Positions 1-40,031 of a DNA stretch of 41,062 bases are shown here, one piece after another. A model generated the notes under the pieces. It did no database searches, was not told where the DNA came from, and saw only the letters and a program-made list of their open reading frames with translations. Positions within the stretch are counted from its first letter, which is position 1. Each line of letters starts with the position of its first letter. The DNA comes from a virus (Duplodnaviria > Heunggongvirae > Uroviricota > Caudoviricetes), in the IMG/VR virus record IMGVR_UViG_2939177367_000003, positions 1 to 41,062 of that record. One strand, written 5' to 3'. The translations under genes were made by a program, and so were the position numbers.

Positions 1-1158
1 ATGCTCACCGTTAAGCAGATTGAAGCAGCAAAGCCGAAAGAAAAACCATACCGCCTTCTCGATGGTAATGGCCTGTACCTTTATGTCCCTGTGTCAGGGA
101 AAAAGGTATGGCAGCTTCGCTACAAGATTGACGGTAAGGAGAAAATCCTGACCGTCGGAAAATATCCGCTTATGACTTTGCAGGAGGCAAGGGATAAAGC
201 ATGGACCGCGAGGAAAGACATCTCGGTTGGCATCGATCCGGTAAAAGCGAAAAAGGCTTCGTCTAACAACAATTCCTTTAGCGCCATTTACAAGGAATGG
301 TACGAGCACAAGAAGCAAGTCTGGTCAGTAGGCTATGCAAATGAACTTGCAAAAATGTTTGATGACGACATTTTACCCATCATCGGCGGCCTTGAAATTC
401 AGGATATTGAGCCGATGCAACTTCTTGAAGTAATCCGCAGATTTGAAGATCGCGGTGCAATGGAGCGAGCCAACAAAGCCCGCAGAAGATGCGGCGAGGT
501 TTTCCGTTACGCTATTGTCACTGGTAGGGCTAAATATAACCCGGCACCTGACCTTGCTGACGCCATGAAGGGATACCGCAAGAAAAACTTCCCGTTTCTT
601 CCTGCAGACCAGATCCCGGCATTTAACAAAGCACTGGCAACATTTTCAGGAAGCATCGTATCGCTCATTGCGACCAAAGTTTTACGCTACACAGCCCTCA
701 GAACAAAAGAGCTTCGTTCCATGCTATGGAAGAACGTCGATTTTGAAAACAGGATTATCACCATCGACGCCAATGTGATGAAGGGACGCAAAATTCATGT
801 GGTTCCTATGTCAGACCAGGTAGTTGAACTTCTCACTACGCTAAGCTCAATCACCAAACCAGTATCAGAGTTTGTTTTTGCCGGGCGCAACGATAAGAAG
901 AAGCCAATTTGCGAGAACGCTGTACTGCTTGTGATCAAACAAATCGGCTATGAAGGTCTGGAAAGCGGTCACGGATTCAGGCATGAATTCAGCACGATTA
1001 TGAACGAGCACGAATGGCCTGCTGATGCTATTGAAGTGCAACTGGCACATGCCAACGGCGGATCTGTGCGCGGGATTTACAACCATGCTCAGTATCTCGA
1101 TAAGCGCAGAGAAATGATGCAGTGGTGGGCGGACTGGCTTGATGGGAAGGTGGGCTAA
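1..1158 (+). CDS. intS: P4-type tyrosine integrase (IntS-like), 385 aa
   Basis: N-terminal AKPKEKPYRLLDGNGLYL and C-terminal HANGGSVRGIYNHAQYLDKRREMMQWWADWLDG motifs typical of P4-family integrases; recalled as matching E. coli IntS. ORF starts at window base 1, so attL lies outside the window. Confidence 0.85.
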   Translation: MLTVKQIEAAKPKEKPYRLLDGNGLYLYVPVSGKKVWQLRYKIDGKEKILTVGKYPLMTLQEARDKAWTARKDISVGIDPVKAKKASSNNNSFSAIYKEWYEHKKQVWSVGYANELAKMFDDDILPIIGGLEIQDIEPMQLLEVIRRFEDRGAMERANKARRRCGEVFRYAIVTGRAKYNPAPDLADAMKGYRKKNFPFLPADQIPAFNKALATFSGSIVSLIATKVLRYTALRTKELRSMLWKNVDFENRIITIDANVMKGRKIHVVPMSDQVVELLTTLSSITKPVSEFVFAGRNDKKKPICENAVLLVIKQIGYEGLESGHGFRHEFSTIMNEHEWPADAIEVQLAHANGGSVRGIYNHAQYLDKRREMMQWWADWLDGKVG

Positions 1159-1300
1159 TCAACTTTGCTATATCTCGGATAGCACAAATCCTTGCAATCC
1201 AGCGCAAAGCTTTGTTTGTCTCATCAACCACAGCAAGTTATCGATCGATTAAGACTTGGATGATAGACTTCATGCCTTTGATTATTAGCTGATAGAAGAA

Positions 1301-1446
1301 ATGTTAAAGCTATTTGCAAAGTACACCTCGATTGGTGTGCTAAACACACTTATACACTGGGTGGTTTTTGGTATTTGTATCTATGCCGCGCATGCAAATC
1401 AGGCTCTGGCAAACTTCGCAGGTTTCGTTGTGGCTGTGAGCTTTAG
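1301..1446 (+). pseudogene. gtrA: gtrA (bactoprenol-linked glucose flippase) 5' fragment, interrupted by IS5 after ~48 codons
   Basis: Translation MLKLFAKYTSIGVLNTLIHWVVFGICIYAAHANQALANFAGFVVAVSF matches the GtrA N-terminus, then runs into the IS5 terminal repeat; the rest of gtrA is absent downstream of the IS. Confidence 0.75.
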
Positions 1447-2642
1447 GGAAGGTGCGAATAAGCAGGTCATTTCTTCCCAAGCTGACTCGCTGATTAAAAT
1501 TTCGCGGAGCTGGGCCGATTTTTTTCCCGCAAACACATCGAATCAGCCTATTTAGGCTATTTTTTCCACCATTTCTGGCGTTATTTCCGGTTTTTACTGA
1601 GATATCTCCCACTGACGTATCATTTGGTCCACCCGAAACAGGTTGGCCAGGGTGAATAACATCGCCAGTTGGTTATCGTTTTTCAGCAGCCCCTTGTATC
1701 TGGCTTTCACGAAGCCGAACTGCCGCTTGATGATGCGAAACGGGTGCTCCACCCTGGCACGGATGCTGGCTTTCATGTATTCGATGTTGATGGCCGTTTT
1801 GTTCTTGCGCGGATGCTGCTTCAAGGTTTTTACCTTGCCGGGGCGCTCGGCGATCAGCCAGTCCACATCCACCTCGGCCAGCTCCTCGCGCTGTGGCGCT
1901 CCTTGGTAGCCGGCATCGGCTGAGACAAATTGCTCCTCTCCATGAAGCAGATTACCCAGCTGATTGAGGTCATGCTCGTTGGCCGCGGTGGTGACCAGGC
2001 TGTGGGTCAGGCCACTCTTGGCATCGACACCAATGTGGGCCTTCATGCCAAAGTGCCACTGATTGCCTTTCTTGGTCTGATGCATCTCCGGATCGCGTTG
2101 CTGCTCTTTGTTCTTGGTAGAGCTGGGTGCCTCAATGATGGTGGCATCCACCAAAGTGCCCTGGGTCATCATGACGCCTGCTTCGGCCAGCCAGCGATTG
2201 ATGGTCTTGAACAATTGACGGGCCAGTTGATGCTGCTCGAGCAGGTGGCGGAAATTCATGATGGTGGTGCGATCCGGCAGGGCGCTATCCAGGGATAATC
2301 GGGCAAACAGGCGCATGGAGGCGATTTCGTACAGGGCATCTTCCATGGCACCGTCGCTCAGGTTGTACCAATGCTGCATGCAGTGAATACGCAGCATGGT
2401 CTCCAGCGGATAGGGCCGTCGGCCATTGCCCGCCTTGGGATAAAACGGCTCGATGACAGCGGTCATATTCTGCCATGGCAGAATCTGCTCCATGCGGGAG
2501 AGGAAAATCTCTTTTCGGGTCTGACGGCGCTTAGTGCTGAATTCACTATCGGCGAAGGTGAGTTGATGGCTCATGATGTCCCTCTGGGATGCGCTCCGGA
2601 TGAATATGATGATCTCATATCAGGAACTTGTTCGCACCTTCC
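1447..2642 (-). mobile_element. IS5 insertion sequence (~1.2 kb)
   Basis: 16-bp terminal inverted repeats GGAAGGTGCGAATAAG (1447-1462) and its near-complement CTTGTTCGCACCTTCC (2627-2642) bracket a full-length transposase ORF. Confidence 0.9.
1594..2574 (-). CDS. insH: IS5 transposase (InsH), 326 aa
   Basis: Translation [37 protein letters not shown]... is recognisable as IS5 InsH. Confidence 0.9.
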
Positions 2643-2985
2643 CTAGTAGTCATTGAACCAAATAAAAAGCATGAATATGGCACTTAGAGTATTAATCAAT
2701 CGATTACTATACAATCACTAACTCGTTTAACCAGAATTTATTACACTGCGTTATTATTTGTTTCTGAAATTTTTATTATGAGTCCCCCCATCAATTCTCT
2801 GTAAGAGAGTATGTGTATCAAGTAGTAGAATGAATTAACAATCAGCAGGCAGATCACTAGCTAAAATTTATGCAATCAAGCGTCAAAATGTATTATATAT
2901 TTACCAGCCATCTGGTATTCTTACCAAGATCCCCTTAGAATAATCAATAAATTTAATTTTTATTTAAAATATGTAGGCACTACTT

Positions 2986-39540: not shown

Positions 39541-39737
39541 ACAAGATTGACTATCAGGCACTGCGTGAGATAGCAAAGCACCAGAGACTTACAGAAGAAT
39601 CAGCGAGCTACGCAAGGACTAACGCCTCACACTCGATGAGGCATTTTCATTTATCAAGATATCTAGACCTACCATCGCCGCATCAATGCGGTTTTTTATT
39701 GCCTGATTTGCAGGTTCGATTCCCTATTCGGAGATAG
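39537..39737 (+). CDS. Hypothetical small protein (66 aa, GTG start)
   Basis: GTGA-coupled to upstream ORF; its 3' end overlaps the tRNA-derived fragment at 39706-39723. Confidence 0.2.
   Translation: MNKIDYQALREIAKHQRLTEESASYARTNASHSMRHFHLSRYLDLPSPHQCGFLLPDLQVRFPIRR
39706..39723 (+). repeat. tRNA-derived fragment (T-arm-like ATTTGCAGGTTCGATTCC)
   Basis: GCAGG-TTCGATT-CC has the form of a tRNA T-stem/T-loop; it is the 5' neighbour expected for the attR core at 40017-40031. Confidence 0.4.
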
Positions 39738-39742
39738 CACTC

Positions 39743-39943
39743 ATGCAACACGAACTACAACCTGATTCACTGGTTGATTTGAAATTCATCATGGCCGATA
39801 CTGGCTTCGGTAAAACCTTCATTTATGACCGGATTAAGTCCGGCGACCTGCCTAAAGCCAAAGTTATCCACGGGCGAGCAAGATGGTTATATCGTGACCA
39901 TTGTGAATTCAAAAATAAGCTCTTAAGCCGCGCCAATGGGTAA
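39743..39943 (+). CDS. torI: TorI-type excisionase / recombination directionality factor
   Basis: 66-aa translation MQHELQPDSLVDLKFIMADTGFGKTFIYDRIKSGDLPKAKVIHGRARWLYRDHCEFKNKLLSRANG matches E. coli TorI as recalled. Confidence 0.85.
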   Translation: MQHELQPDSLVDLKFIMADTGFGKTFIYDRIKSGDLPKAKVIHGRARWLYRDHCEFKNKLLSRANG

Positions 39944-40016
39944 AATAGCGGGTAAAATATTTCTCACATCTAAAAAACACCATTCCAATCAATCCCCTGC
40001 CGCTTCAAGTAGATGT

Positions 40017-40031
40017 CTGCAGGGGACACCA
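40017..40031 (+). repeat. attR core: 3' end of a tRNA-Arg-like gene (CTGCAGGGGACACCA)
   Basis: Reads as T-stem 3' strand, acceptor 3' strand, discriminator and CCA; lies between torI and dsdC; embedded in dyad CCCCTGC...GCAGGGG. Confidence 0.6.

Follow-up and report, generated by a model that had tools for sequence, protein, structure and literature searches.

A probable mosaic lambdoid prophage at argW with a KplE1-type recombination module and SfII-type morphogenesis genes

The stretch of DNA analysed here (the window) is the whole 41,062-nucleotide virus record IMGVR_UViG_2939177367_000003 of IMG/VR. Our reading, to which we give a probability of about 0.85, is that it holds one temperate lambdoid prophage of ~40.2 kb in the 3' end of argW of an E. 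coli-like host, with dsdC at its right. With the same confidence, four parts are distinguished: a KplE1-type recombination module; a morphogenesis half of SfII/SfV type; an early half with P22_Cro, CII, O, and S24 genes, an HK022-like Nun, and mEp043-like replication, nin, Q, and lysis genes; and a cargo region scrambled by insertion sequences (IS). Infectivity is uncertain because the tail-fibre assembly gene (tfa) carries a frameshift and the element lacks an intact invertase gene for its fibre switch, and the term "intact" needs qualifying.

Recombination Module and Attachment Site

An unusual organisation of the recombination module has been described for a sub-family that includes KplE1 (CPS-53), HK620, Sf6, CUS-3, and prophages of APEC-O1 and UTI89 (PMC2951348; PMC3509656). 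In KplE1-type modules, IntS and TorI repress the intS promoter, which overlaps attL. Transcription of the integrase gene (int) and of the gene for the recombination directionality factor (RDF) is uncoupled, and production of TorI leads to excision at once (PMC2951348; PMC3509656).

The window carries both genes of such a module. The first, intS (1–1158, + strand), encodes a KplE1-type tyrosine integrase of 385 amino acids (aa). Its Pfam matches (Arm-DNA-bind_3, Phage_int_M, and Phage_integrase) cover the arm-binding, central, and catalytic domains of an IntS-type heterobivalent tyrosine integrase, and 381 of 385 residues are identical to K-12 IntS (the changes are T114N, S258N, E382G, and E385G). 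The second, torI (39743–39943, +), encodes a 66-aa RDF that is identical to K-12 TorI at all 66 positions, falls in a PHROG excisionase family, and matches the "Tor inhibition protein" of PDB 1Z4H (E = 6.6e-43). It is the final gene of the early-left strand. Integrase and RDF thus stand at opposite prophage ends in the same orientation, with start codons 39,742 bases apart. A first, sequence-only reading of the window had placed an integrase and a TorI-type excisionase ~39.7 kb apart at opposite ends, as in KplE1/CPS-53, and the present comparison bears this out: the module, core, orientation, and dsdC flank are the same. That reading had also tied its view to similarity of the ends to CPS-53, and both ends do align, positions 1–1446 (intS, spacer, and 48 gtrA codons) at 94.8% and positions 39624–41062 at 98.2% identity.

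The attR core is a 16-nt sequence, CTGCAGGGGACACCAT (40017–40032, +), which duplicates the 3' end of argW and exactly matches the duplicated core reported for KplE1 (PMC2951348). The K-12 copy annotated as "pawZ" is 15 nt long and would end at 40031, which is where the sequence-only reading had ended the element. Only one exact copy of the core occurs in the window, at attR. A search of the window for internal att sites with up to three mismatches gave a single further match, in terL, with three mismatches, which is at chance level. The window opens at the intS ATG, and attL, the intS promoter, and argW lie upstream, outside it. A tRNA scan of the window found none because argW lies outside. 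The distance from the core to the intS ATG is 176 bases in K-12, and assemblies that are 100% identical over the 1446-base intS region have argW and the core at the same distance upstream of the ATG. In these assemblies, 230 of 236 bases upstream of intS match K-12. On the right, dsdC (40127–41062, −) is host flank, with 310 of 311 aa identical to K-12 DsdC, and RefSeq annotation of the best-matching E. coli loci names argW, intS, torI, and dsdC.

The torI stop codon and the core are 73 bases apart. By these spacings (73 + 176 around the core), circularisation would place torI and intS about 250 bases apart. Phage Sf6 has its TorI homologue, attP core, and int on a single strand in this order, and its two genes are separated by 249 bases. 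Two terminator-like hairpins (39624–39642 and 39677–39692) are located just upstream of torI, and the block conserved with K-12 begins at 39624, ~120 bases before torI and exactly at the hairpins. The hairpins may limit read-through into torI.

Predicted Control of Excision

The placement of intS and torI would follow from the way the module is opened. In the circular phage genome, torI, attP, and intS would adjoin in the same direction, with ~250 bases between the genes. Integration would cut inside attP, between torI and intS, and would therefore leave torI as the last gene at attR and intS as the first gene at attL. If regulation follows that of KplE1, intS would be transcribed from its own promoter overlapping attL and kept low by IntS and TorI. 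TorI would be produced only on derepression of the early-left operon, that is, after cleavage of the S24-type repressor, and would then direct IntS to recombine attL with attR. Transcription of intS and torI would accordingly be uncoupled in the window element, by analogy with KplE1 (PMC2951348). We infer in the same way that the element may excise, be inducible by the SOS response, and make particles.

Packaging, Head, and Tail Genes

The late genes were compared with those of SfII, a viable Shigella phage. From TerS to YmfQ, each of the 22 proteins has its full length and is 97.4–100% identical to its SfII counterpart, and at the DNA level window positions 7039–24360 are 98.3% identical to SfII with one gap. 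The Mu-type contractile tail and baseplate genes (7400–16710, −; 97.4–100% identical) encode YmfQ/gp48, baseplate J, gp46, V, hub, DNA circularization protein, tape measure, chaperone, tube, sheath, and a DUF2635 protein. Pfam names for this block (sheath, tube, DNA circularization protein, Mu gp45, gp46, Baseplate_J, and Mu gp48) were read on locus L016, which is 99% identical. Next to it (16719–24256, −; 98.3–100% identical) are genes for the tail terminator, neck/connector, HK97-type capsid, S78 prohead protease, portal, YmfR, and the large and small terminase subunits, with Pfam matches to Phage_capsid, Peptidase_S78, Phage_portal, TerL_ATPase/nuclease, and Terminase_4.

An HNH endonuclease gene (24373–24723, −; Pfam HNH) adjoins the terminase genes, and its product is 94% identical to the SfII HNH protein. 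Alignment of the junction maps the ends of the linear SfII record between this gene and terS (~24360–24375). RefSeq gives the e14 gene names ymfQ, ymfR, tfaE, and pinE to the late genes of this type.

Lysis, Replication, Immunity, and Early-Left Genes

The early half is most similar to phage mEp043. Eighteen early and lysis proteins (among them the DUF2740 protein, O, primase-helicase, NinB, NinE, NinF, NinH, RusA, YbcO, Q, holin, endolysin, Rz, Erf, SSB-like protein, and Abc2) are full length and 91–100% identical to those of mEp043, which is viable. The lysis cassette (25933–27150, −) consists of holin (26827–27150), endolysin (26367–26843), and Rz (25933–26370) with embedded Rz1; it matches Pfam Phage_holin_3_1 and Phage_lysis and is 95–99% identical to mEp043 over full length. 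Q and the nin genes (27584–30697, −) encode, besides Q, NinH, RusA, YbcO, a KilAC/Rha antirepressor-like protein, NinF, NinE, and NinB, all identified by Pfam and 91–100% identical to mEp043 over full length. Two Rha-domain regulators are present. One (29038–29760) has an additional KilAC domain and lies within the nin region, and the other (25210–25764; Pfam Phage_pRha and ORF11CD3) lies with an 87-aa open reading frame (ORF) at 24950–25764 (−), in the interval between the lysis cassette and the HNH-terminase genes.

The replication module (30757–33744, −; Pfam) includes an O-type initiator (32745–33605), a Toprim/DnaB-like primase-helicase (30757–32637), and a DUF2740 protein, and is 99.3–99.5% identical to mEp043 over full length. 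An identical 626-aa primase-helicase occurs in many differently built lambdoid prophages (L021–L028), most of which have P22-type portal and virion genes. This distribution is read from sequence comparison as a clear case of single-module exchange. A look-up for relatives by the primase-helicase returned only such differently built prophages and no full-length relative.

The immunity region (33777–35105) holds CII (33777–34073, −; Pfam Phage_CII), a P22-type Cro (34189–34374, −; Pfam P22_Cro), and a 216-aa repressor with helix-turn-helix and S24-peptidase domains (34455–35105, +; Pfam HTH_3 and Peptidase_S24). It is followed by an N-type antiterminator (35390–35725, +), which has a weak Pfam N_peptide match and an arginine-rich N-terminus that we take to be phage-21-like, and by a Nun-type termination factor (35722–36066, +; PHROG Nun-like, E = 1.8e-70) that is 96.5% identical to HK022 Nun. 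mEp235 and mEpX1 also have an annotated N and Nun pair, and Kapi1 contains both ORFs. The gap after nun (36108–36185) contains a 26-codon fragment that is 88% identical to the C-terminus of the lambda-type N of mEp043, probably a scar of past module exchange.

The early-left operon (36201–39737, +) is 95–100% identical to mEp043 and encodes small ORFs, Erf (37557–38162), an SSB-like protein (38162–38545), the Abc2 anti-RecBCD protein (38569–38862; Pfam Anti-RecBCD_p2), an Ea22-like protein (39016–39540), and a truncated ORF (39537–39737), with assignments from PHROGs and Pfam. PADLOC run on ten accessory proteins found no defence system, and Rfam at gathering thresholds gave no match in the window.

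The lysis, replication, antitermination, and immunity sets are therefore complete, and the comparisons with SfII and mEp043 together with Pfam agree with the sequence-only reading that the element has structural, lysis, replication, and immunity modules. The lineages it named are also real: the head is of HK97 type, the tail of Mu/e14 type, Cro and Abc2 of P22 type, and CII, O, nin, holin S, and Rz of lambda type.

Tail Fibre and Invertible Segment

Tail-fibre genes of the window lie in a probable DNA switch. The invertible segment (5204–7119) is bounded by 27-nt inverted repeats (5204–5230 and 7093–7119) that are 85% complementary and that resemble crossover sites of the Hin/Gin/Pin family. 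In the present orientation, the expressed tail fibre (6734–7396, −; Pfam Gp53-like_C) is a full-length protein of 220 aa, identical to the NCTC9041 protein at 217 of 220 positions and 64% identical to the SfII fibre over full length. The segment also holds an alternative fibre C-terminus (5176–5697, +) and its full-length 200-aa assembly protein (5697–6299, +), which is 87.5% identical to TfaE of strain NADC1036; Pfam Collar and Caudo_TAP cover the two. By calculation from the coordinates, inversion would join the alternative C-terminus in frame to the constant fibre part. A Pin-type DNA invertase gene is present as a stub of 31 codons (5057–5149, −). In a tblastn search with the NADC1036 PinE protein, residues 1–31 of 184 alone remain, and the same 31-aa stub occurs in the relative L016.

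The tfa gene of the expressed orientation (6271–6713, −) differs from its relatives by a 1-nt frameshift. A run of five T (T5; 6674–6678) stands where the closest RefSeq relatives (98.7% identical; NCTC9041 and C11 aligned) have six (T6), and the frame that begins with the ATG at 6713 is broken after codon 13. The resulting 17-codon ORF ends in a TGA that overlaps the ATG at 6663 (ATGA), and from that ATG an ORF of 130 aa is open. Restoring one T gives a protein of 147 aa, 141 of which are identical to the relatives' protein, and the 130-aa remainder retains positions 14–130 of the 131 in the Caudo_TAP profile. Five public assemblies encode the identical fibre protein, and every one of them has the T5 allele; the 130-aa ORF is open in four of them, and 116 aa are called in the fifth. 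Exact-sequence look-ups found no record of either the 132-aa or the 130-aa Tfa remainder.

It is unlikely, although it merits mention, that T5 is the working state of a transmissible phage lineage and not a lesion, with the chaperone made by termination-reinitiation at ATGA or by −1 slippage on the U run. In that case the element would, in addition, be an inducible myovirus with a KplE1 module, and real induction could offer a test of the intS/torI model, which has been derived solely from the non-inducible K-12 remnant.

Cargo Region Beside intS

The cargo genes next to intS have been rearranged by IS elements. Relatives with identical intS carry gtrA, gtrB, and a 546-aa gtrC, followed by a 344-aa acyltransferase. 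In the window, only about the first 48 codons of gtrA remain (1301–1446, +; Pfam GtrA_DPMS_TM positions 1–48 of 117), and identity to relatives with intact gtrABC ends at 1446. An IS5-family, ISKpn26-like element (1447–2642, −) follows immediately; it has a full-length 326-aa transposase (1594–2574; Pfam DDE_Tnp_1 and DUF772), and RefSeq names a 96% identical copy ISKpn26. This element stands in place of 3302 bases (the rest of gtrA, gtrB, and gtrC) of relatives L007–L012, and its flanking tetranucleotides differ (TTAG vs. CTAG), which therefore points to an IS-associated deletion.

The acyltransferase-3 family membrane protein (2986–4020, +; 344 aa; Pfam Acyl_transf_3) is encoded in a stretch of 29.5% G+C and is probably an O-antigen acetylase-type cargo protein. 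Beside the destroyed gtr cassette, it may still modify the host surface. An IS4-family, ISSfl9-like remnant (4207–4939, +) is non-coding and 91.6% identical to the 5' part of ISSfl9 in SfII; just one 131-aa ORF is left in it, without a Pfam match.

Relatives and Spread of the Lineage

Close relatives of the prophage occur in public assemblies with different host flanks. Two of them (L007 and L008) share 99.8% identity by BLAST across 5.3 kb of prophage DNA on the right side of the core, but no more than 92.0% in the neighbouring mlaA-yfdC-argW DNA. Of the two flanks, one resembles E. coli/Shigella (98.8%); the other has its best match in E. ruysiae (95.1%) and has 90–95% identity to every complete E. 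coli genome compared. In L007 and L011 (SRR28288603 and GCA_910573665.1), positions 1700–3824 are flank of the latter kind, ~92% identical to complete E. coli genomes and nearest to Escherichia ruysiae. Positions 1–1446 of the window are 100% identical to both the E. coli-like and the E. ruysiae-like contig sets. The left end of the prophage is thus found in carriers with an E. ruysiae-like flank, and the phage lineage therefore crosses Escherichia species. The E. ruysiae-like assembly also contains a tail segment with the T5 allele, which matches 9.2 kb of the window at 99.97% identity; the link of this segment to the intS contig rests on the shared assembly. Taken together, these identities suggest that the lineage has spread recently by horizontal transfer, frameshift included. 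Such a pattern would argue against a long-dead prophage, but it does not prove infectivity of this copy.

One relative, L017 (GCA_019373255.1), has a truncated baseplate J gene fused to a truncated dsdC (6036–9315), which corresponds to window position 8978 joined to 40677; torI and attR are also lost. By its structure, L017 would be an independent CPS-53-like remnant.

State of the Prophage and Alternative Readings

Several observations weigh against the reading of the window as a temperate prophage. Because attL lies outside the window, excision competence cannot be read from the given sequence. The tfa gene of the expressed fibre is frameshifted, and fibre assembly may fail unless the 130-aa Tfa remainder is made and works. 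With only a Pin stub, the element depends on an invertase provided in trans to switch to the alternative fibre/tfa pair, which is intact. The loss of gtrABC and the two IS elements or remnants in the cargo region are signs of decay, and in relative L017 the whole stretch from baseplate J through to dsdC is already gone. The tblastn comparison with mEp043 revealed no kil homologue. A 56-aa ORF (37130–37300) looks cIII-like by eye; Pfam gave no match, and it is not claimed. When each whole half was compared by megablast with complete E. coli genomes and phage records, none covered 80% or more of either half, and therefore this exact mosaic has not been seen as a virion.

These signs of decay raise the possibility, which we put at somewhat less than even odds, that the prophage is already defective (cryptic). 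It might still be excised by IntS and TorI as KplE1 is, make no infectious particles, and represent an early stage of CPS-53-type decay. The frameshift in tfa, the truncated pin that leaves the fibre switch locked, the IS5-associated deletion, and the IS4 remnant all fit such a state, and T5 and the pin stub are inherited in relatives, of which L017 has a large CPS-53-like deletion. However, all other late and early genes compared are full length and 91–100% identical to those of viable phages. The T5 allele also occurs in prophages that are 99.8–100% identical despite flanks that diverge by 8%, which is hard to explain without recent infectious transfer. In addition, the 130-aa ORF has stayed open in four of the five assemblies, covers 117 of the 131 Caudo_TAP positions, and begins at a stop-start overlap.

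The suggestion of the sequence-only reading that the element may be an intact relative of the K-12 remnant is accordingly upheld in part. The ends are homologous and the modules are present, but tfa is frameshifted, pin is a stub, gtrABC is lost, and only ~27% of CPS-53 is aligned. Frameshifts in structural genes, on which it had also made its view depend, are absent from the 22 late proteins compared and present in tfa. For the essential late genes, then, the account is 22 of 22 intact plus the fibre, with tfa frameshifted and its 130-aa remainder open.

A homopolymer sequencing error in tfa, with a prophage intact apart from its cargo, is very improbable. The change is a single base within a T run, as such errors are, but T5 is found in five independent public assemblies or read sets with the identical fibre protein, and the window assembly has only 0–1 indels per ~16 kb against close relatives. 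Least credible is an origin of intS and torI from two elements, for example by tandem or nested insertion at argW: the two halves do have different closest relatives (SfII vs. mEp043/HK022-type phages), but there is a single core copy with no internal att site and one set of each module in standard lambdoid order, the same two-part mosaic forms the single prophage 042p1 (PMC2808357), and RefSeq genomes join terminase/portal genes to torI-dsdC or, in one case, tail and head genes to argW-intS.

Read as one temperate prophage in argW, the element shows only features of known kinds, and it joins the prophages of the argW/KplE1-module group as a new mosaic with SfII-type morphogenesis. The split int/RDF layout is not unusual; it and its regulatory consequences were described between 2007 and 2012 for KplE1, HK620, Sf6, CUS-3, and related prophages, and mosaics of SfV-like structural and lambda/P22-like early genes have been reported in E. 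coli genomes. The importance of the finding beyond annotation is slight. Near-complete relatives with the same module exist and could serve as inducible models of the intS/torI switch. The lineage also shows decay under way, with IS-mediated loss of serotype conversion, loss of the invertase, a chaperone frameshift, and one large CPS-53-like deletion.

Comparison With Known Phages and Prophages

The closest relatives of the element differ by half: SfII for positions 7039–24736 and mEp043/HK022-type phages for positions 25940–39021. The whole packaging-head-tail-baseplate block is shared with the serotype-converting phages SfII, SfI, SfV, and SfIV (SfII DNA was compared). As in the window, SfII has cargo between tail fibres and integrase, including an acyltransferase and a copy or remnant of ISSfl9. 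SfII differs in having its own integrase with an adjacent xis and an intact gtrABC, whereas int and RDF of the window are split across attP and a functional gtrA-gtrB-gtr(type) cassette of the SfV/SfII type is absent, with 48 gtrA codons left. SfII and the window have unrelated early, immunity, replication, and Q genes, and no DNA similarity to SfII was found over window positions 26825–39055. The fibre C-terminus also differs, and the annotated SfII record has no invertible segment or pin gene.

IntS-type integrases are found in many deposited phages, among them Sf6, HK620, CUS-3, HK633, Kapi1, and VT2phi_272. Sf6, HK620, and CUS-3 are viable P22-like podoviruses that integrate at argW. They have the same IntS/TorI module (int DNA 94.6–97.1% identical) and P22-like early functions, and Sf6 has a cargo acetylase beside int. 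Their virions are short-tailed and of P22 type with a tailspike, whereas the window has genes for a contractile Mu-type tail and an HK97-type head.

Patches of the early-left, replication, nin, Q, and lysis genes are 95–99% identical to mEp043, HK022, HK97, mEp235, and Sf101, which we take to be siphoviruses. mEp043 differs from the window element in its annotated SfX-like integrase and thrW-type attachment site and in its immunity region and N gene.

The combination of such halves has a precedent in prophage 042p1 of EAEC 042, whose structural half is SfV-like and whose early half is lambda/P22-like, with gtr following the tail genes, and which was judged to be an apparently complete, single prophage (PMC2808357). 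It is likened to the window element from its published description alone. Several RefSeq E. coli genomes carry the same terminase and portal genes joined to torI-dsdC in one stretch, and NADC1036 joins argW-intS to the same tail and head genes. Phage vB_EcoM-689R6 was considered as a virion-proven phage of the same combination and was ruled out by its different integrase, the adjacent "excisionase-like protein from lambdoid prophage 14", and icd nearby.

CPS-53/KplE1 shares with the window element the argW core and dsdC flank, the same 16-nt core, gtrA after intS, and IntS (99%) and TorI (100%) encoded at opposite ends in the same orientation. Besides the two ends, pieces of the tail-fibre region align in the same order and orientation (6009–6577 with tfaS/yfdK and 7045–7334 with yfdL), and the aligned stretches amount to ~2.8 kb of the 10.2-kb CPS-53. 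CPS-53 differs in its size and in being without a repressor; the window element, at ~40.2 kb, has all modules. The remaining genes of CPS-53, yfdM-yfdT, match SfII and vB_EcoM-689R6 and not the early region of the window. From yfdL to ypdJ (L003 6336–10735), K-12 CPS-53 is 95–98.5% identical to these two phages: yfdM-yfdO is 98.5% identical to the dam/replication genes of SfII, yfdR-ypdJ is 95.5% identical to SfII, and yfdP-yfdR is 96.8% identical to vB_EcoM-689R6. The yfdL/yfdM junction (L003 ~6622) marks a large deletion in CPS-53. Because its fibre fragments and yfdM-yfdT match that group, CPS-53 is read as a deletion remnant of an SfII/e14-like myovirus and not of a P22-like phage. The window element shares the recombination module, cargo position, and late-gene type with it but has a different early half, and for that reason is a mosaic cousin of the ancestor of CPS-53 and not its intact version.

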